This document shows, in pieces, positions 21,709-30,961 of a stretch of 32,000 nt of DNA. The first letter of the stretch is position 1; each line of letters opens with the position of its first letter. The notes under the pieces are model-generated. The model made no database searches. It saw only the letters and a list, made by a program, of their open reading frames with translations, and was not told where the DNA came from. The stretch spans positions 1,110,001 through 1,142,000 of the forward strand of contig NZ_CP076228.1 of assembly GCF_021378375.1 (NCBI RefSeq), given 5' to 3'. A program made the position numbers and the translations under genes. This stretch comes from Wolbachia endosymbiont of Drosophila innubila (GTDB lineage: Bacteria > Pseudomonadota > Alphaproteobacteria > Rickettsiales > Anaplasmataceae).

Positions 21709-21830
21709 TTAAGCGACCTTCCAATAAGCAAGTTGCCGCAATTATTTATAATATGGCATAATTGCCCAGTTTTAATGTAAAATTAACGCTAAAGAGGTAT
21801 CTATACATTTTGTTATGTATGGAGGAGTCT

Positions 21831-23048
21831 ATGCTAAGTTCTAAAAAAGATATTAACCAACAATTGCACGACACTATATACAAAAAGGTAACAAAAGAAA
21901 ATCATAAATATGGAAGCCCACAAAAGGGAGATGGAACTATCAAAAAATGCATAGAGTTGTTCAAGGAAGGAGCTAGTCTTGAGGTATTAACTGAATTAGA
22001 AAAATCGCTGAGAGAACAATTAGAAAAATCACCAAAAAAACAAGAGGAATATCAAAAACATTATAAGTATTATATCGAAAACTTTCTTCCTGCATTGAAA
22101 GATGAAGTAATAAAATCAGAAGAACTAGCTGTACCTACAGTATTTAACAATGAAAGAGAACAATCACAAAGACCACAAACAATAAGAGGAAAAATAGTAA
22201 AAACAATTTTGGATATTACTAACAGGAGCAGCAGTGTAAGCTCAATACCAAATGCTGTTGAAGAAAATATTGAAGATCAAATGCAGCTAAAACATATTGA
22301 AGAGCAAAACAACACACAAGAAACACCCTTGAATGTAGCTGAGAAAAAAAGTGGTGATAATAAAATACTTAGTAATTCAGATGTTGCAGAGGAAGTGTTT
22401 GAAAAATATAGCAAGGTTGTGAAAGAAATAGAGGAGAAGAAAACTTCTAAACTCAGTAGTGGCAATGACTCAGATAGTGGAATAGACTCACCTAGAACGA
22501 GTAAAGAAAGTTTGAAATCACCAGTAAGTAGCAGAAGGAGCAGTTTAACTTTAGTAACAAGCACTTCATCTGAGGAAAGTTTAAACTCAACATTGAGCTC
22601 TGTTGAAGGAGATAATGGCTTGCAACCAGAGGGTGGAGAAAAAACTGAGTTATTAGAATCAAATTTGGAATCCCCAAAAGAAAACGAGACTCAAGTGCAG
22701 CCAGAGCAGACTGTAAAAAAAGAGCCAAAAATGCAAGAAAATGAAAACTCAGATGGTCAAGCAAATCCAGATCAAGTTAAGAAAGATATCCTACTTAAAA
22801 ACCAACCCAATAACAGAAATCTTCACGTTGCACTTGTAGCAGGTTGTGCTCTCTCCACAATAAGGTGCATTGTTGCAGGAGCAATGACATCAGGATTGAT
22901 AGGAGCAGGACTACTTGCTATGGCTGCAGTGTTTGCTATAGCAGCAGTAGCTGAATTGCATTCAAACTTCCTATCAAGTAAATTAACATCCATTAATGTG
23001 AGTCCTCTTGTTGATGATAAAGAGCTTACAGCATGTTCACGTCTGTAA
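21831..23048 (+). CDS. hypothetical Ser/Glu/Lys-rich protein with a C-terminal bilobed hydrophobic domain
   Basis: The ORF is open from 21762. The ATG at 21831 is preceded by ggagga, and ATG 21819 is also possible. It has a long low-complexity Ser-rich middle and a C-terminal hydrophobic region of about 46 aa, LHVALVAGCALSTIRCIVAGAMTSGLIGAGLLAMAAVFAIAAVAEL. No known domain was recognised. Confidence 0.6.
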   Translation: MLSSKKDINQQLHDTIYKKVTKENHKYGSPQKGDGTIKKCIELFKEGASLEVLTELEKSLREQLEKSPKKQEEYQKHYKYYIENFLPALKDEVIKSEELAVPTVFNNEREQSQRPQTIRGKIVKTILDITNRSSSVSSIPNAVEENIEDQMQLKHIEEQNNTQETPLNVAEKKSGDNKILSNSDVAEEVFEKYSKVVKEIEEKKTSKLSSGNDSDSGIDSPRTSKESLKSPVSSRRSSLTLVTSTSSEESLNSTLSSVEGDNGLQPEGGEKTELLESNLESPKENETQVQPEQTVKKEPKMQENENSDGQANPDQVKKDILLKNQPNNRNLHVALVAGCALSTIRCIVAGAMTSGLIGAGLLAMAAVFAIAAVAELHSNFLSSKLTSINVSPLVDDKELTACSRL

Positions 23049-23146: not shown

Positions 23147-23524
23147 TTGATGCGCATTCAATTGAATAAAGTTTTGGTTTTTATAGCCTTATTAAGTTTC
23201 ATTTTTGCATCATATTCTAGCGAAGCAAGTTCGGCGAGTGATGAATTAAAGGGTATACAAGAAACGGTAAAAAATTTTATTTCTTCATTTTCAGTTAAAG
23301 ATACTGTAGAAAATATGAATCCTTCAACAATCATAGGGTTGTGTATAGCTGCAGTGATACTTGCAGTAGTGTTCAGAGGTCTAATCTTTTTTATGATAAT
23401 GTTTGGTGTACTGGTCCTGATGTTCGGTAGTACAGAAAAGGCAACAGACTACTTAAAAGAAAAATTTAACTTTGCAAAAGATATAAAATTACAATCCGAT
23501 AGCGAAAAAAAAGATAAAAATTAA
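23147..23524 (+). CDS. small membrane protein, VirB2/TrbC pilin-like by topology
   Basis: 125 aa with an N-terminal signal-peptide-like segment (VLVFIALLSFIFASYSSEA). Two adjacent hydrophobic helices (IIGLCIAAVILAVVF-RG-LIFFMIMFGVLVLMFG) are followed by a charged tail. It lies 32 bp upstream of a virB4 paralogue on the same strand. Confidence 0.45.
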   Translation: MMRIQLNKVLVFIALLSFIFASYSSEASSASDELKGIQETVKNFISSFSVKDTVENMNPSTIIGLCIAAVILAVVFRGLIFFMIMFGVLVLMFGSTEKATDYLKEKFNFAKDIKLQSDSEKKDKN

Positions 23525-23556: not shown

Positions 23557-25923
23557 TTGAATATGCATATGCAGTTAAAAGTACCAACAGTTAACTCTAA
23601 GCTTAAAAAAAAGAACAACTTAGCATTACTAGAAAGCATTGATTTAGATTTTGTTCCTTATGCTTGTCATTACGATGAAGAAACCATACTAACAAAACAG
23701 GGAGAATTGTTAAAAATAATCAAGTTAGAAGATTATTCTTCTGTTGATAACTACAGCGACCTCAGAACTGAAATTAGAAAAAGCATATCAAAAAATATTA
23801 ATAGCCTGTGTTTTACCGCTTGGATTCATACCGTTAGAAAGCGCAATAAACTGAGCTTGAAATGGAATAAAACTGAAGACTTCTCTGACAACCTACATTC
23901 AACGTGGTTTAATAAACTAACTGATAGTAAATTACAGTATATAAATGAACTATACATTGTAATATTGTTTAGCGATTTTGGCAAGCATACTAATAATTCG
24001 TTTTTTTTCAATAGAATAAAGAATAAGCATAAGTTGTCTTTACAAGGAAGCCATCAGGAGTTGCAAAAGATAACTGACGTAATTCAAAATGATTTAGGAC
24101 CTTTTGGAGCTAAAAAACTGAGTCTAAGGTTTAGTGAAGGTAAAATATATTCTGAAATGATAGAATTTCTCCACTATATTGTTACATTAACGCACAAAGA
24201 TTATCCAATACATGAAAGGGACCTGTCGCAATATATTAGAAATTTTAAAATAGCTTTTGGTTTCAATACGTTTCAAACAATATTTGAAAATCAACAGAAA
24301 TTTGGCTCTATTTTCAGCATAAAAGAATACCGGGAAATCTCTTTAGGTAATATAGATAGATGCTTGCAGCTTGAATCTGAATTTATCATTACAGAAATAA
24401 TGATATTTACTAGTAATAACAAAGCAATAAAAGAATTTAAAAAACAAATCAACATGCTGCAAATTAGTGAGGATAATACCTTACTTAAAAGCTCAGGAAT
24501 TGAAGAAATAATAGAGCTTGAAAAGACCTCTAGTATAGACTTCTGCCAACAGAAAATTATTTTTACAATATTTGCAGATGATAGGAATAAGTTAGCTGAA
24601 AGTATTAGTGATTTATCTTCTATAATGTCATTAGTTGGCTTCATGATGTTTAGAACTGATTTACATATGGAAAGTCATTTTTGGGCACAACTTCCAGGCA
24701 ATTTTGCTTTTATTACGCAACCGAAAAATATCTTAACAAAATACGCTTGCAGCTTTGCTATGCTGCACGATTTTACGTCAGGTACATTAAAAGGAAGAAG
24801 GTGGAAAGAAGCGGTAATGATTTTTTTTTCAAAAAAAGGAAATCCTTACTTCTTTAATTTTCATGGAAAAAGAAATAATGGCCATACTACGATACTCGGA
24901 GCTCCAAATTCAGGCAGAACTTCACTCATTAATTTTCTATTATCAGAATCAAGAAAGTTTAACCCAAGAATTGTCATATTGGATAACACTGGAAAATCAA
25001 TAATTTTTACTAAAGCAGTGAGTGGTAAATATTACATAATCGATCCAAAATATAAGGACAAAAGCCTAAAATTTAATCCACTAAACATTGAAGATAGTGC
25101 TTCCAATCGCAATATGTTGGTTGAACTGATCAGAAGAATGGTAGCCGATACGAGCTTGGTGGACGTAGAAGAAAAGATAAGAAAAATTGTGGATTCTATA
25201 TTTGCTATACCCAAGGAATCACGTTCTATTTCACAAATTTCTGAGGTGCTCTTGCTCCTTGGGGGTAAGATAAGTAGATGGTGTGACGATGGTGATTTTG
25301 CTTACTTATTTCAAGATGGTGATGAATCAGATATTGACTGGGAAACAAAAATTATATCTCTCAACACCGCAAACCTTACAAAACAAAAGGAATGTATGTC
25401 CGTGATACTTTACTATTTTTTATATTCTTTTGAGGCAAAATGTGATGGCTCGCCTGCAATACTTGTTTTGGATGAAGCATGGGAGATAAGTAATATTTTT
25501 CCTACAGAGAAAGAGTTTGATAACTGGATGCAAAGAATGACGGAACTAAATGTTGTAGTAATCCTAAGTACTGAGAATTTAAATCTCGCATTTGCTAGCA
25601 AATTTACTCAATATTTAGATAAACATGTTGATACAAGAATCTTGATGCCGAACGTCAATGCAAATAGATTATACATGAAGGCATTTTCTCTATCGAAAGA
25701 GGAGCTGAATATAATTCTGCAGACGCCAACACAGGAAGGTTTATTTTTGATAAAACAGTACAAAGGATTAGTAACCTTAAATCTGGATTTGAAGGATATG
25801 CAAGAAATACATGTACTTTCAGCTAACAAAGAGACTATAAAGTATATGTATGAGGCAATAAAAGAAAAAGGAGAAGAAGTTAATGAGTGGTTACCGGTAT
25901 TTTATGAGAAGTGTAAGGCTTAA
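23557..25923 (+). CDS. virB4: type IV secretion system ATPase VirB4 paralogue, divergent second copy
   Basis: 788 aa with VirB4/CagE/TrbE-like organisation. Walker A-like GHTTILGAPNSGRTSLINFLL, Walker B AILVLDEAWEI, and a C-terminal region NVVVILSTENL. Possible starts are TTG 23557, ATG 23563 or ATG 23569. Confidence 0.85.
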   Translation: MNMHMQLKVPTVNSKLKKKNNLALLESIDLDFVPYACHYDEETILTKQGELLKIIKLEDYSSVDNYSDLRTEIRKSISKNINSLCFTAWIHTVRKRNKLSLKWNKTEDFSDNLHSTWFNKLTDSKLQYINELYIVILFSDFGKHTNNSFFFNRIKNKHKLSLQGSHQELQKITDVIQNDLGPFGAKKLSLRFSEGKIYSEMIEFLHYIVTLTHKDYPIHERDLSQYIRNFKIAFGFNTFQTIFENQQKFGSIFSIKEYREISLGNIDRCLQLESEFIITEIMIFTSNNKAIKEFKKQINMLQISEDNTLLKSSGIEEIIELEKTSSIDFCQQKIIFTIFADDRNKLAESISDLSSIMSLVGFMMFRTDLHMESHFWAQLPGNFAFITQPKNILTKYACSFAMLHDFTSGTLKGRRWKEAVMIFFSKKGNPYFFNFHGKRNNGHTTILGAPNSGRTSLINFLLSESRKFNPRIVILDNTGKSIIFTKAVSGKYYIIDPKYKDKSLKFNPLNIEDSASNRNMLVELIRRMVADTSLVDVEEKIRKIVDSIFAIPKESRSISQISEVLLLLGGKISRWCDDGDFAYLFQDGDESDIDWETKIISLNTANLTKQKECMSVILYYFLYSFEAKCDGSPAILVLDEAWEISNIFPTEKEFDNWMQRMTELNVVVILSTENLNLAFASKFTQYLDKHVDTRILMPNVNANRLYMKAFSLSKEELNIILQTPTQEGLFLIKQYKGLVTLNLDLKDMQEIHVLSANKETIKYMYEAIKEKGEEVNEWLPVFYEKCKA

Positions 25924-28765
25924 TTTCTTATTGATATTTTTTTTGATACTTGGTCTTTCGTATCAAGGATATGCTGATTGTCCAACATTTGTAGAAAGTA
26001 ATACTTGGTGGGAAGCAATAGTTGGTGGAGATTGGGTAAAGGAAATTAAGGTGCAAGCAATAAAAGATCAAGGAGTTGATGGTTACTTTAATCCCAAAAT
26101 TAGAGTATGTGCTTATGATGGACAAAGTTATTGTTATGACTTACAAAGTGGGGAATCCTGCCGCCAGATATATGGAACGCAAGGTACAGGAGCTGGAGTT
26201 TCTGCTGCAGCTTTTATCGACTGGGAAGGAGATAAAACAAAAGCTGGAGGAGAAATTGCTCGGGGTCTTAAATGGGAATGGGCAGACGGTGTTACTGATG
26301 AGGAAAAAAGAAGATTCGCTAACTCTCCTAAAATATGTGCTTGCAGTCAAAAAGGGGCTTGTATGTCAGGAATTTCTTCATGGGGTTCTAGAGTATTTTC
26401 GGGTGAGAATATTTTCCGTCTTGGGGAGATGGAAAAAGTCTGTGATACCTGCTACCAAACGGCAGTAAAATGTGCTCCTGTTCCACTTGCACCTGGCCCC
26501 CCTCCATTTTGTGAACAACTTGCAATGTCGCTTCCACAAGTTAGAATTGTTCCTATAACAGATAAAGACAATGATTACTTTAATCCTAAGGTTAAGGTAA
26601 TCATTGGTGATCTGAAAGGAAGAGACGGAGAGATTGGAGAAAAATTAGATTTCCCTAAAGGGTATGGAGAAAATAAAGCTGAGTGGCGCTCTATTTTAGA
26701 CAAAAATGGCATCACGTACTACTTCAAAACTTATAGAGAAAAAGATAAGCTCTGCGCTGAATACCTTGGAACTCAAAGTATAGATGAAAACAATCCACAG
26801 TTCATCCGCTGTTTTCCTGCACTACCTGCTCCAGAACCTGAGATAGTGGAGATAGTAAATGCAAATACATTGAAAGTAGAAATGAAGATGAGTGAGAGCG
26901 CTTGTGCTAAAGCACATGGAACCTATAGTAATGGTTCCTGTACTTTTAATGTTAATACTGACCTCAACCATCCTATAAACATTGGCCCCCTATCTTTAAA
27001 AGTAGTAAAACCAGCAATAGTAGCAAAAACAACTGATAGTAATATTGATAATATTATAGAAGGTATATTAGAAAGTAATCCGCAACAATTTAAAGTTCTG
27101 AAAGAATATGGCTATGTTCCTGATGTGCAAATTAAATGTTCTAAAGGCGGAAGTTTTTATAGTTTTAATGATTTTGAGAAAAAGTTAAAAGACAAATCTA
27201 TTCAATGTGAATTTAATAACTCTGGGCAGCCGGAAATAGAAGTAAAGTATAAAGGAAATTCTAACAGTAAAATGCTTTGTCTTTCTGGATGGCAGCCAGA
27301 ACCAGAGGAGTTTGTTCTTAAAAGAGAAAATAAAATAATACCACTAAAATTAATGGGAACAAGATATACTAAATACAATGCTGTTTACTCCAAGGAATCA
27401 AATCAGTTCTATTATCTTCCAAGCAAGGAAATAGTTTACCCTTTGAAAGAAACTCAAGAGAGGTTGGATAAAATAATATTTAATAAGCAAGAGTATGTTT
27501 TCTTCCCTGATGAAAATGAGCAGAAGAAGGAAGAATGCAGTTATTGTGTGAAGAAAGATAGCAAAATAGACGAAAAATTAAAATCTGGTGAAGGACTGAA
27601 AGTAGTATACAAATTGACGGATGTAGAGCATAAAGAAGGATGTGAGCAAGGTGATGATGGTTGCATCTGCTTTGATGGAAAGTGTAGCCGTTCAAAACAA
27701 TATTTGAATAAAAATGAAGATGATAAGCCATTCTACTTAAGGTATGAGGAAGTGGATTGTAAAGATAAGGATGGTAAAGTATTAAGAGATGAAAAAAATG
27801 AAGTACGAAAGTGTACACAATTAAAAGATCAACTGATTAAAGCAAACAGAACAGAGGTTTTTTACGCTGATAAATTGTGTAGGTTCGATTTAGAAGGTCT
27901 CAAAAAGAAATTAAAAGAAAAATTAAAAGAGATAATCAAGGAACATCTGAAAAATAAGAAACCAGATCTTGAAAAAAATAATGAAAAATCCTATGATCAT
28001 AAAAATAAAGATGTTTATACAGATGACTTATCAATAAAATTTGATCGTATTAAAATAGAAGCGTGGGGAAGTGGTGAAGCAGGTCATATACAAGGTAGTG
28101 GCTGTGACAATCAAAAATGCCATTCTACTGAAAGCAGAGTAGGGATGCCAGGAGATTATATTAAAGCTAAACTGAAAATCGATCCTAATTATCCTATAAT
28201 TAAGGTGCAAGTCACAGAGGGAGGGGGTAACCAGGAAAGTAACTTCTCAGATAAGGACGGGGGACCTATTTTCATAGAAATGTGCAATTCGCAGAAGCAA
28301 CATTGCCAGCAACTGATTACTGTTGCAGGTGGAGGTGAGTATAGAATATACGGTGGTAAGGGTTATGAGGAAACAGTAATTCATAAGCAAGATTTAAAGC
28401 TAGAGGAGAAAATTGTAAAGGCAGATAAACTGAAGTCTACACAAGACAATCAAATAGCATATATAGAAAATGGTGAAATCAAGTATGAAACAGTAGAGTG
28501 TGGAAGTGGTTTGAGAAGCAGTAGATCTGGTGCAGGTGGCTGCATTAATAAAAGCAAAGGAATTTATGGTAAAGGCTCTCCAGGGTATGTGAAGATTAGA
28601 CCTATTATAAAGGAATTTGACGAAGAAGAAATAAATGCTGCTATTAAAAAAGTAATAGAGGATCTATACGATCTTGAAACTATGACTGATTTTTGGGTAG
28701 GGGATCTTAACGTGAATATAAGTGGGATAATTAAAGAGGAAGTCAAAAAAGAATTATCAAGGTAA
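25883..28765 (+). CDS. large secreted cysteine-rich protein of unknown function with a C-terminal glycine-rich domain
   Basis: 960-aa uninterrupted ORF overlapping the virB4-paralogue 3' end by 41 nt (20 nt if it starts at ATG 25904). It has a signal peptide LNFLLIFFLILGLSYQGYA|DC, many Cys residues, and Pro-rich linkers (PLAPGPPPF, ALPAPEPE). The motif D-x-YFNPK-[IV]-[RK]-V occurs twice. The C-terminus reads IEAWGSGEAGH...VTEGGGNQ...ITVAGGGE...GAGGC...GKGSPGYVKIRP. Confidence 0.7.
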   Translation: MSGYRYFMRSVRLNFLLIFFLILGLSYQGYADCPTFVESNTWWEAIVGGDWVKEIKVQAIKDQGVDGYFNPKIRVCAYDGQSYCYDLQSGESCRQIYGTQGTGAGVSAAAFIDWEGDKTKAGGEIARGLKWEWADGVTDEEKRRFANSPKICACSQKGACMSGISSWGSRVFSGENIFRLGEMEKVCDTCYQTAVKCAPVPLAPGPPPFCEQLAMSLPQVRIVPITDKDNDYFNPKVKVIIGDLKGRDGEIGEKLDFPKGYGENKAEWRSILDKNGITYYFKTYREKDKLCAEYLGTQSIDENNPQFIRCFPALPAPEPEIVEIVNANTLKVEMKMSESACAKAHGTYSNGSCTFNVNTDLNHPINIGPLSLKVVKPAIVAKTTDSNIDNIIEGILESNPQQFKVLKEYGYVPDVQIKCSKGGSFYSFNDFEKKLKDKSIQCEFNNSGQPEIEVKYKGNSNSKMLCLSGWQPEPEEFVLKRENKIIPLKLMGTRYTKYNAVYSKESNQFYYLPSKEIVYPLKETQERLDKIIFNKQEYVFFPDENEQKKEECSYCVKKDSKIDEKLKSGEGLKVVYKLTDVEHKEGCEQGDDGCICFDGKCSRSKQYLNKNEDDKPFYLRYEEVDCKDKDGKVLRDEKNEVRKCTQLKDQLIKANRTEVFYADKLCRFDLEGLKKKLKEKLKEIIKEHLKNKKPDLEKNNEKSYDHKNKDVYTDDLSIKFDRIKIEAWGSGEAGHIQGSGCDNQKCHSTESRVGMPGDYIKAKLKIDPNYPIIKVQVTEGGGNQESNFSDKDGGPIFIEMCNSQKQHCQQLITVAGGGEYRIYGGKGYEETVIHKQDLKLEEKIVKADKLKSTQDNQIAYIENGEIKYETVECGSGLRSSRSGAGGCINKSKGIYGKGSPGYVKIRPIIKEFDEEEINAAIKKVIEDLYDLETMTDFWVGDLNVNISGIIKEEVKKELSR

Positions 28766-28889: not shown

Positions 28890-30800
28890 GTGCGCCAAGA
28901 AGTGCGTAAGGAACAGTTGGTGAAAATCCAACACGGGTAAAGCTTAGCCGGCAACCTGGAACAAACCATTATGCTGCGTAAGGTAACGAGCGTAGTAAAG
29001 CTAATGGAATGGACAACATAGGGTGCAACGAAAGTGAAGGTATTGAGTCCCGTAATTCACGCGTCATGGGGGCTGACACTTTACATTTGGTGGAAGGCAA
29101 CATGGGTAATAACGCTAAGGCAAGATATTACTCACCTCATCGGGATCGAAGGCCGCGTCATGTGTTGAGATGGACCTTACGTGAACTTGGGAGATCCTTT
29201 GTATTCCTGTAAGGGTACTCTGGAACAAGTCAATAAAGGCGAGGACTGGAGGAAGATGCAAAGGAAGTCGGACTAATTGATAGTACTCGGAGTGTGGGAA
29301 AGCCACATACAAGGGGAAGCGGTTAGCAATATAGTGACTGGTATAGGGATTGCTATACCAATACAACAGAGATTAGAGGAGTATGCAAGGAAAACTAAAC
29401 CAGATAGCAGTAAGGGCTAAGCAAGATAAGCGAGTAAAATTTACATCATTAGTTCATTTGATTAATGAAGAGAATCTTGCAGAGTGTTATAAGGAACTAA
29501 AACGCAACAAGGCTTGTAGTATAGATCGTGTGACAGTGGAAGCTTATGGAGAAAATCTAGAAGAGAAACTTAAAACACTAGTGGATAGTATGAAGAGAAA
29601 ACAATATCAACCGCTACCAGTGAAAAGGGTATACATACCCAAAGCCGGGAGCAAAGAGAAGCGCGGTCTCGGAATACCATCAACGGAAGATAAGTTGGTA
29701 CAGGTAATGCTAAAGAAGATATTAGAAAATATTTATGAAGCAAACTTTATGGACAGCTCGTATGGATTTCGACCAGGAAGAAATTGTCATCAGGCGATAA
29801 ACGCTCTAGATAAAGCAGTTATGCACAAACCAATTAACTATATTGTAGAAGTGGATATCAAGAAGTTCTTTGATAATGTTCAACATAAATGGCTAATGAA
29901 TTGTCTAAGGAACGAATAGCTGACCCAAATTTATTGTGGTTAATAAAACGATTTCTAAAGGCAGGAATAGTCGAAGTTGGATGTTATAAAGCAACCGATC
30001 AAGGCACACCACAAGGTGGTATAGTAAGCCCTGTATTAGCTAATATATACTTACACTATGTGCTGGACTTATGGTTTGAAAAGAAATTTAAGCCAAAAGC
30101 CAGAGGATATTTACAGCTAATAAGGTTTTGCGACGATTTTGTAGTTGGCTGCGAGAGGAAGAAGACGCAAAAGAATTTCTAGAATTACTGAAACAAAGAC
30201 TAAGTAAATTTGGGTTGGAAATAGCTGAAAATAAAACAAAAATAGTAAAGTTTGGTAAGAAAGAATGGTATCAAGCAGAAAGAGAGAAACGTAGGACGGC
30301 TAGCTTCAACTTTCTAGGATTTACACATTATTGTGGAAAAGTCGTAATGGTAAACTTATGATGAAGCAGAAAACTTCAAAAATAAGCCTAGCCAGAAAGA
30401 TTAAAAGAAATCAAAGAATGGTTGAAGATGGTACGAAGTCGTATCTGTTTCAAAGATTGGTGGCAGAAACTTAAAAGCCAAACTAACAGGACACTATAGC
30501 TACTTCGGAGTTAGCGGAAATTATCGGTGTTTGATTCAATTCTATCGACCGGTAACAAAGTTAGCATTTAAGTGGATAAACCGACGTAGTCAAAAGAAAA
30601 GTATGGATTGGGAACAATTTATACACTATTTAAAAGTAAATCCATTACCAAAACCAAAGGTATATGTTTCTTTATACACAGGAGCACTAGTGTGAACGCT
30701 GTATTGTGGAGCCGTGTGCGGGAAATCCGCAAGCACGGTTCTTTTGGGGAGACTATGGTTATGAGACCAAATCGCTGGTTTCAAGGTCATGAGTCTCTAC
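28890..30800 (+). mobile_element. bacterial group II intron (ribozyme plus degraded intron-encoded protein)
   Basis: The 5' end is GTGCG at 28890. About 490 nt of higher-GC structured sequence precede the domain IV ORF. Domain V at 30709-30741 (GAGCCGTGTGCGGGAAATCCGCAAGCACGGTTC) closely matches the canonical DV with a GAAA tetraloop. A DVI-like stem has a candidate bulged A at 30792, and the element ends ..CTAC near 30800. The 3' boundary is good to only a few nt. Confidence 0.8.
29383..30695 (+). pseudogene. group II intron reverse transcriptase/maturase, multiply frameshifted
   Basis: RT blocks are present: VKRVYIPKAGSKEKRGLGIPSTEDKLVQ, YGFRPGRNCHQAI, GTPQGGIVSPVLANIYLH and RFCDDFVV (YADD-box position). 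The maturase/X region reads FLGFTHY...FKWINRRSQKKSMDWEQF. It is split over at least 4 frames, with shifts near 29895-29920, 30150-30180, 30340-30365 and 30400-30600. No En/HNH domain was seen. Confidence 0.8.
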
Positions 30801-30961
30801 CAGACTAAGATAAATCGAAGCATTTTTGTGGAAATAAAGCGAAATATGGAAGACAAAAGATAAATGCATTCTGAAAGGCTACACAGCATGTTCGTCCCGC
30901 TAATTAATAATATCTTTATTATTGTATGAGATAGGTAATTTAGCATTTATGAATTTGTAAT

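Follow-up and report, generated by a model that had tools for sequence, protein, structure and literature searches.

The locus and the product of ORF X

The window analysed here, 32,000 nucleotides (nt) of DNA from the Wolbachia endosymbiont of Drosophila innubila (contig NZ_CP076228.1), contains an open reading frame, designated ORF X, located directly downstream of a gene for a divergent VirB4 paralogue (VirB4-II) of the rvh type IV secretion system (T4SS). Its product, X, appears from profile comparisons to belong to a family sharing the N-terminal module (EtpE-N) of the Ehrlichia chaffeensis invasin EtpE, and has a C-terminal domain of the type found in phage tail fibres. The gene, its neighbour and the features of its N-terminal part are (aa, amino acids):

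25883..28765, plus strand: ORF X, 960-aa Cys-rich protein of the EtpE-N family, predicted to be secreted
25883..25975, plus strand: predicted Sec signal peptide, aa 1–31, with a hydrophobic core at aa 8–30 and likely cleavage after G-Y-A
26471..26512, plus strand: Cys-flanked proline-rich linker C-APVPLAPGPPPF-C, aa 197–210, among the best-conserved blocks of the family
23557..25923, plus strand: divergent VirB4 paralogue (VirB4-II / rvhB4-II type), 788 aa, matching Pfam CagE_TrbE_VirB and, below the cut-off, TIGR00929

An alternative start at M8 (nt 25904), the usual one in most databases, yields a 953-aa form identical to WP_233641027.1, a 'hypothetical protein' of the Wolbachia of D. innubila whose cluster has 158 members annotated as hypothetical only. 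The sole hydropathy peak in X lies at aa 8–30 and is followed by G-Y-A and then D, an arrangement compatible with a Sec signal peptide, and a hydrophobic N-terminal segment is conserved family-wide. The original prediction had proposed a signal peptide and pointed out frequent cysteines; both observations were borne out, the former by this signal-peptide-like N-terminus and the latter by a conserved Cys-rich body. Of the 33 cysteines in X, 25 Wolbachia orthologues (60–91% identical) keep 23 without exception and 2 almost so; in 52 family members, with identities down to 20%, the corresponding numbers are 9 and 5. In the same 52 sequences, C197 and P206 of the proline-rich linker are invariant, and P201, P204, P207, P208 and C210 nearly so. 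The motifs reported earlier were all present within a few bases of the positions given: YFNPK at aa 68 (nt 26084–26098) and aa 232 (nt 26576–26590), ICACS at aa 151, GCICFDGKC at aa 593, WGSGEAG at aa 728 (nt 28064), EGGG at aa 779, AGGGE at aa 815, GAGG at aa 883, and GKGSPGYV at aa 896 (nt 28568–28591).

The non-Wolbachia proteins P0150, P0155, P0157, P0166, P0177 and P0183 carry a hydrophobic insertion of 20–70 residues, rich in Gly, Ala, Val and Ile, at columns ~235–300 of alignment A3, i.e. between residues C160 and C197 of X, which is missing from Wolbachia. In its sequence the insertion looks like a glycine-zipper or transmembrane segment, and it may be a membrane anchor that was lost or replaced in Wolbachia.

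Homology with the N-terminal module of EtpE

EtpE (ECH1038, 1963 aa) is a surface-exposed invasin of E. chaffeensis for which both a secretion signal and an outer-membrane anchor have been predicted at the N-terminus; host DNase X is bound by the last ~300 aa, and EtpE-C (aa 1658–1963) is the sole part with a demonstrated function (PMC3789761). Ehrlichia species share a conserved N-terminal region of ~700 aa, which has no assigned function and is poorly accessible to antibody on live bacteria (PMC3789761). The segments of X relevant to the comparison are:

26477..28339, plus strand: core aligned by hhalign to the Anaplasma EtpE-like proteins, X aa 199–819 against aa 171–692 (EtpE model ~170–780)
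27890..27979, plus strand: lysine/glutamate-rich long alpha-helix, aa 670–699 (a single AlphaFold helix), directly preceding the glycine-rich domain
28619..28762, plus strand: acidic helical C-terminal tail, aa 913–960, 27% Asp plus Glu, occurring in Wolbachia

The NCBIfam model for this protein, NF049896 ('entry-triggering protein EtpE'), is an equivalog of length 1934 with a cut-off of 1500 bits. Over model positions ~170–780 it scored 200 bits with the distant family member P0159 and 111 bits with P0150, and 51–108 bits with P0155, P0157, P0158, P0166, P0156 and P0163 (P0163 and P0166 over a shorter stretch); positions ~170–777 were matched in 8 of the 9 distant members from metagenome-assembled genomes (MAGs) that were scanned, in P0163 only partly. 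Scores rose to 344–356 bits with the Anaplasma proteins, and direct matches were also obtained with 4 of the 25 Wolbachia orthologues, the best at 44 bits (expected value, E=3.6e-12). The window protein itself gave no match to NF049896 in the NCBIfam scan. When the Wolbachia profile was aligned with the Anaplasma EtpE-like proteins by hhalign, 481 columns were matched with a probability of 95.5% (E=1.5e-8). Judged by these profiles, X is homologous to the EtpE-N module, a relationship that the original prediction did not recognise.

The cut-off of 1500 bits was reached neither by the orthologues of X nor by the Anaplasma proteins, and no family member matched NF049896 beyond position ~850 of 1934. 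Since X falls below the equivalog cut-off and lacks EtpE-C, its sequence identifies it as a homologue of different architecture and not as an EtpE orthologue. X ends 48 aa past the glycine-rich domain; as it has neither the variable middle part nor EtpE-C, it is a short, EtpE-N-only form consisting of the conserved base module and a Wolbachia-specific acidic helical tail. The helix at aa 670–699 is likewise a Wolbachia-specific insertion, missing from the non-Wolbachia relatives in the alignment, and the distant relative P0166 has an unrelated C-terminal extension. According to the original prediction, a confident match to an already characterised family would have spoken against its reading of X; a link to EtpE has been found, but the part of EtpE that is matched has no known function. 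A review describes EtpE as a unique Ehrlichia invasin (PMC8834651), and our literature search, which was incomplete in coverage, found no paper linking EtpE to Wolbachia homologues; EtpE and Wolbachia are both mentioned in six papers, Wolbachia one to three times in each.

The C-terminal glycine-rich domain

28025..28618, plus strand: C-terminal TNF-like / glycine-rich domain, aa 715–912, supported by Gly_rich_2 matches in orthologues, by Foldseek and by a predicted local distance difference test score (pLDDT) of about 84

This domain contains the conserved motifs WGxGEAG, GxPGDY, EGGG, DGGP, AGGG, GAGGC and GxxG and two Cys pairs (801/808 and 873/887). Glycine accounts for 14% of its residues, against 7% in aa 32–714, and occurs in runs of 3–4. 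With Pfam cut-offs of 24.3 bits for Gly_rich_2 (PF21722) and 24.5 bits for ALK_LTK_GRD (PF12810), Gly_rich_2 was detected above the cut-off in four more divergent orthologues (P0102, P0107, P0115 and P0113; 26.6–27.6 bits) and in distant members, reaching 35.3 bits in P0163 and covering model positions 12–220 of 226 in the Anaplasma EtpE-like protein P0187. The best ALK_LTK_GRD score in the family, 20.9 bits (E=3.9e-4) in a Rickettsiaceae MAG paralogue, was below the cut-off, and the Pfam scan gave no ALK_LTK_GRD match for X or its orthologues. PHROG minor-tail families also matched distant family members.

A first AlphaFold model of X, built with 25 Wolbachia sequences only, had a pLDDT of 56, and Foldseek found nothing significant with it in the PDB. 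Because distant relatives were added to the alignment, the second model was better (pLDDT 78.1, predicted template modelling score 0.59, with a pLDDT of about 84 over aa 715–910). A Foldseek search with an AlphaFold model had been proposed in the original prediction, and with the second model it returned from the PDB the cyanophage Pam3 fibre as the first match (7ypx_A, E=4.4e-4, probability 1.0) and the tail tip of mycobacteriophage Bxb1 as the next (9d93_Qa, E=4.7e-4), as well as 109 matches at E<=1e-3 in BFVD, with 220–240 aligned columns, dominated by proteins annotated as 'glycine-rich domain-containing', 'minor tail' or 'tail fibre'. There was no ALK or LTK chain among the top 50 PDB matches listed. 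Searches of PDB sequences with X alone or with profiles A2, A6 and A5 gave chance-level matches, with no ALK, LTK or phage fibre among them, and the C-terminal alignment, when used in a word-indexed search, matched nothing but fragments from Wolbachia and from host assemblies. The Pam3 protein, gp24, has a TNF-like and glycine-rich receptor-binding tip resembling S16 gp38 and the C. elegans ALK structure 7LIR (PMC9608196). On the modelled structure, the Gly_rich_2 / TNF-like fold class is right for the C-terminus of X at the superfamily level, and the earlier proposal of a glycine-rich domain of the phage tail-fibre/ALK type is upheld by the Gly_rich_2 matches in orthologues together with the similarity to Pam3 gp24.

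In alignment A6, the glycine-rich domain of the non-Wolbachia proteins is bracketed by two cysteines, in K-C-D-F at the start and I-T-C-E-x-W at the end. These residues (positions ~719 and ~907 of X) are both missing in the three Wolbachia-type sequences, which have the C-terminal helical tail instead. That the two were lost together suggests that the ancestral protein had a terminal disulfide staple.

The YFNPK repeat

26045..26113, plus strand: beta-hairpin copy 1, aa 55–77, IKVQAIKDQGVDGYFNPKIRVCA, aligned with copy 2 by hhalign; F69 and P71 nearly invariant in 52 sequences
26540..26605, plus strand: beta-hairpin copy 2, aa 220–241, VRIVPITDKDNDYFNPKVKVII, aligned with copy 1 by hhalign and present in the family consensus

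In the single sequence the YFNPK repeat is not significant on its own, as 34% of shuffles hold some exactly repeated 5-mer. Both copies nevertheless persist down to 20% identity, with the consensus sequences GFFxPKIxV and SFFxPKIKV. When the two halves of the region (aa 30–215 and 216–380) were compared by hhalign, 11 columns were aligned with the Wolbachia alignment (E=3e-4) and 22 columns with the 52-sequence alignment (E=5.5e-5). The hairpin repeat is considered real because both copies are conserved family-wide and the profile-profile comparison gives E=5.5e-5, and as read from these sequences it is a reused beta-hairpin. The original prediction had taken the two copies, about 165 aa apart, as suggesting an internal domain duplication. 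A tandem duplication of a ~165-aa YFNPK module as the origin of the N-terminal half would account for conserved [FY]FxPK hairpins 164 aa apart, each followed by beta-rich sequence, but hhalign found no alignment of the two halves outside the strand-turn-strand element and their Cys patterns differ; we therefore regard this origin as unlikely.

Genomic context

In the window, the stop codon of VirB4-II (25921–25923) lies inside ORF X, giving an overlap of 41 nt, or of 20 nt if translation starts at M8. VirB4-II scores 449 bits with TIGR00929, below the cut-off of 643 bits. Related loci were sought with an 8-sequence alignment, which represents one narrow pattern and not a census. VirB4-II is followed by X in all 3 Wolbachia loci examined, namely the window, wApol and a supergroup B strain (the latter two with an overlap of 20 nt), and in four Rickettsiales MAG lineages, the first three of them small genomes unrelated to one another: L003 (TrbC, TrbC, VirB4, X), L005 (TrbC, VirB4, X, with a 4-nt overlap), L006 (TrbC, VirB4, X, atpD) and L010 (an Anaplasmataceae MAG with a VirB4-II 55% identical, then X). 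In Anaplasma (L012 and L013) the order is TrbC, TrbC, VirB4 and then a 1864-aa EtpE-like protein, with a gap of about 550 nt between the last two. The published locus tags of E. chaffeensis (virB2-4, ECH1042; VirB4, ECH_1041; EtpE, ECH1038) suggest, taken alone, that EtpE lies near virB2 and VirB4 in that species as well.

Across these lineages the identity of VirB4-II falls to 31–35%, and the flanking genes differ in every case. That VirB4-II and X have stayed adjacent despite such divergence is therefore good evidence of functional coupling, and the start/stop overlaps of 20–41 nt in Wolbachia and 4 nt in L005 suggest translational coupling. The secretion-system context noted in the original prediction is thus substantiated, with X directly following VirB4-II and the order kept in at least 8 lineages, a deep conservation that the original prediction had not noticed.

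The Walker A motif of VirB4-II (aa 448–455, GAPNSGRT) has Arg in place of the canonical Lys, as it does in wApol and the supergroup B strain; among distant relatives, one has GKPESGST and another keeps GPMNSGKT. The Walker B motif (ILVLDEA) is intact in Wolbachia. RvhB4-II has been published as structurally atypical, with which the Wolbachia Walker A variant is consistent.

Some family members occupy other sites. In L006, L008 and L009 a member is found just upstream of atpD, the gene of the ATP synthase beta subunit. L008 has two tandem paralogues between gatB and atpD with no virB4 nearby, and in L009 the paralogue follows the flagellar gene flgK and is separated from atpD by a 311-aa minus-strand ORF. 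The site upstream of atpD could be the ancestral location of the module. In Anaplasma L012 (12616–20774), two further large ORFs (1275 and 1333 aa), neither with a Pfam match, come after the gene of the 1864-aa EtpE-like protein.

Other features near ORF X are:

23147..23524, plus strand: small membrane protein of 125 aa that has a signal peptide plus a hydrophobic hairpin, at the position of TrbC/VirB2 in distant relatives
21762..23048, plus strand: acidic protein of 428 aa, rich in serine and with a hydrophobic segment at the C-terminus, a syntenic upstream neighbour in L002 whose membership in the module is uncertain
28923..29155, plus strand: group-II-D1D4-6 (Rfam)
30707..30805, plus strand: Intron_gpII (Rfam)

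The hydrophobic hairpin of the 125-aa protein is 35 residues long and split by R-G. The protein is VirB2-like only in topology and position; it may be a pilin that has diverged very far, or else a small membrane protein of other origin. The 428-aa protein has no Pfam or NCBIfam match. Its identity with its counterpart in the supergroup B strain (L002) is only 43–52%, compared with 87% for VirB4-II. It is fast-evolving, and could be a candidate for a membrane-inserted or host-facing protein. Just downstream of X lies a group II intron (28923–30805, plus strand), whose reverse-transcriptase ORF is broken into at least 3 frames (29383–29919, 29889–30182 and 30128–30361), and the intron is therefore probably a decaying copy.

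Distribution of the family

About 220 cluster representatives of the family were found, nearly all named Wolbachia. A search of 1.84 billion representatives with the Wolbachia profile recovered ~25 distant relatives, full-length and 680–1850 aa long, which match X at ~165–400 (around the second hairpin) and ~729–918 (the glycine-rich domain). Their source records are Anaplasmataceae, Rickettsiaceae and Rickettsiales MAGs and Anaplasma. The last word-indexed search (alignment A7), in which Wolbachia orthologues predominated, returned no Ehrlichia EtpE identifier. By sequence, the family is Rickettsiales-wide and old within the order. The original prediction had considered such a protein unusual in an intracellular symbiont, which does not agree with a family made up almost entirely of Wolbachia and other Rickettsiales proteins.

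Three records come from host genomes: P0089, a 1657-aa 'nudix hydrolase domain-containing protein' of the spider Trichonephila clavata, which is a fusion call of VirB4-II and X, and the nematode records P0135 (Dictyocaulus viviparus) and P0139 (Brugia malayi Bm9339), which hold C-terminal fragments of the family. They are likely Wolbachia contamination or lateral transfers.

Possible role of X

We propose, with a probability of roughly 60%, that X is the Wolbachia member of the EtpE-N family and a Sec-exported protein of the envelope or surface, acting together with the VirB2/VirB4-II sub-module of the T4SS. The signal-like N-terminal segment suggests that i) X would be exported by the Sec system, the 13–25 conserved cysteines that ii) it would fold in the oxidising periplasm with many disulfides, and the analogy with EtpE that iii) it would reach the envelope or the surface. 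Its body would be a string of beta-rich domains with the twice-used [FY]FxPK hairpin and the Cys-bracketed polyproline linker, ending in ~200 aa of the TNF-like / glycine-rich domain. Domains of this type make up the receptor-binding tips of phage tail fibres and, in ALK/LTK, the region that binds the ligand. X would probably be co-expressed with the VirB2/VirB4-II sub-module of the rvh system, and most plausibly it would serve for binding or as a scaffold, in the envelope or in association with the pilus, its glycine-rich domain either making contact with a ligand or oligomerising.

Several points weigh against this proposal. Neither X nor its C-terminus alone has a Pfam or NCBIfam match (for Gly_rich_2, none even at E<=10), so that the family assignments come from orthologues and profiles, and the Foldseek match is placed at aa ~700–912 by inference from its length and the Pfam coordinates. 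The glycine-rich domain of Pam3 gp24 is 39% glycine (PMC9608196). With only 14%, the domain of X cannot form an extensive polyglycine-helix lattice like that of ALK or Pam3, a feature of ALK_LTK_GRD that needs a very high Gly content. As to the T4SS, the 125-aa protein upstream of VirB4-II has no detectable homology with VirB2 (no TrbC match; hhalign probability 1%), and in two genomes paralogues lie away from virB4 (gatB-X-X-atpD in L008 and flgK...X...atpD in L009). The location of the Wolbachia members is a prediction from sequence and from the analogy with EtpE. Moreover, beads coated with recombinant EtpE-N failed to bind HEK293 cells, and antibody to EtpE-N had hardly any neutralising effect on infection (PMC3789761), so the sole experimental data leave a host-binding role of the module unsupported.

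It is plausible, if on balance improbable, that X is an outer-membrane or surface adhesin acting independently of the T4SS, its adjacency to virB4-II being historical. EtpE triggers entry by its own C-terminus without other bacterial factors (PMC3789761), the paralogues of L008 and L009 are unlinked to virB4, and the Anaplasma copy is spaced from VirB4 by about 550 nt. A historical adjacency is, however, hard to reconcile with a gene order kept in at least 8 lineages between wholly different flanks while VirB4-II itself has diverged to 31–35% identity, or with the overlaps of the two genes in Wolbachia and L005.

Translocation of X into the host cytoplasm as a T4SS effector is quite unlikely. 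X adjoins T4SS genes and has a charged C-terminal tail, and WBM0748, 0749, 0751 and 0752, flanking virB4-2 (wBm0750), were shortlisted in an effector screen as 'co-regulated with T4SS', WBM0749 having been detected in B. malayi proteomics (PMC6160203). Against this, X could not be matched with certainty to a wBm or wMel locus tag, the Sec-type N-terminal segment and the 13–25 conserved cysteines point to periplasmic oxidative folding, and the homologue EtpE is a surface protein that is not translocated. The tail of X is acidic (27% Asp plus Glu), and many VirB/D4 secretion signals are basic.

A domesticated phage tail fibre or prophage WO remnant is highly improbable. In structure, the C-terminal domain matches fibre and minor tail proteins of phages, and distant members match minor-tail families weakly in sequence, but the phage-like part is only the last ~200 aa. 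Every genome examined has housekeeping and T4SS genes on the flanks of the locus, and the family has a long history in Rickettsiales. A search of 2.9 million viral contigs with close patterns yielded no relative, so that the locus is not considered prophage-derived.

The reading of X as an envelope or surface partner of the VirB2/VirB4-II sub-module can be taken a step further, to a speculative and doubtful idea. The absence of a VirB5 analogue is treated in the literature as a hallmark of rvh systems, and a 2025 cryo-electron tomography preprint reports that wMel makes a long pilus, calling its assembly without VirB5 'unresolved'. The EtpE-N family might be the functional counterpart of the absent VirB5, i.e. 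a Sec-exported, disulfide-stabilised adhesin assembled by VirB2/VirB4-II at the exterior of the pilus or channel, with the phage-fibre-type glycine-rich domain at the contact end, and Ehrlichia and Anaplasma would later have added host-receptor-binding C-termini, turning it into an invasin. The negative bead-binding result with EtpE-N calls for caution here.

The EtpE-N module emerges from this work as an ancient protein of the Rickettsiales that all Wolbachia supergroups sampled here possess, and its importance is thus much wider. New findings are the phage-fibre-type domain within EtpE-N and the membership of EtpE-N in a conserved virB2 - virB4-II - etpE module; the phage-fibre/ALK-type binding domain suggests a possible activity for the module. 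The position after virB4-II, usually with virB2 upstream, ties X to those features of the rvh T4SS that are understood least, namely its second VirB4, its several pilins and its lack of VirB5, and makes X a concrete candidate in the assembly of the wMel pilus without VirB5. Wolbachia is not genetically manipulable, and X, being conserved and probably exposed, could be relevant to host-membrane contact, to antibody tools and to comparison with the tractable Ehrlichia.

Comparison with known systems

EtpE is the closest of the known systems. It is homologous to X over ~170–780, has the same glycine-rich domain and, like X by prediction, an N-terminal secretion signal. It differs in length (1963 aa against 960 aa) and in having a strain-variable middle part (~950 aa) and EtpE-C, whereas the aa 670–699 helix and the acidic tail of X are specific to Wolbachia. 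The EtpE gene directly follows virB2/virB4-2 in Anaplasma and lies nearby in E. chaffeensis by locus tags, as X follows VirB4-II.

With the phage tail-fibre domains (Pam3 gp24, 7YPX; S16 gp38; mycobacteriophage minor tail proteins) X shares a stretch of ~200 aa in which beta-strands alternate with Gly motifs, and with Pam3 gp24 also a helix before the domain. Unlike these, the domain of X has putative intradomain disulfides, follows a ~700-aa non-phage body and is not phage-encoded, and its glycine content is 14% instead of 39%. ALK and LTK share the broad TNF-like plus glycine-rich architecture with X by way of Pam3 gp24, but the family match is below the cut-off and X has no kinase or receptor context.

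With the adhesins VirB5/TraC, CagL and TraN the likeness is a functional analogy only. X is, like them, Sec-dependent by prediction, and F-plasmid TraN is also cysteine-rich. X had no Pfam or NCBIfam match to VirB5, and no VirB5 structure was among the top 50 PDB matches listed by Foldseek. VirB5 is small and alpha-helical, whereas X is 4–5 times larger and beta-rich. Its gene nevertheless has the placement of a VirB5 gene, with a product predicted to be secreted encoded directly after virB4 and pilin gene(s) upstream (in Wolbachia VirB2-like in topology only), which is where virB5 sits in the Agrobacterium operon.

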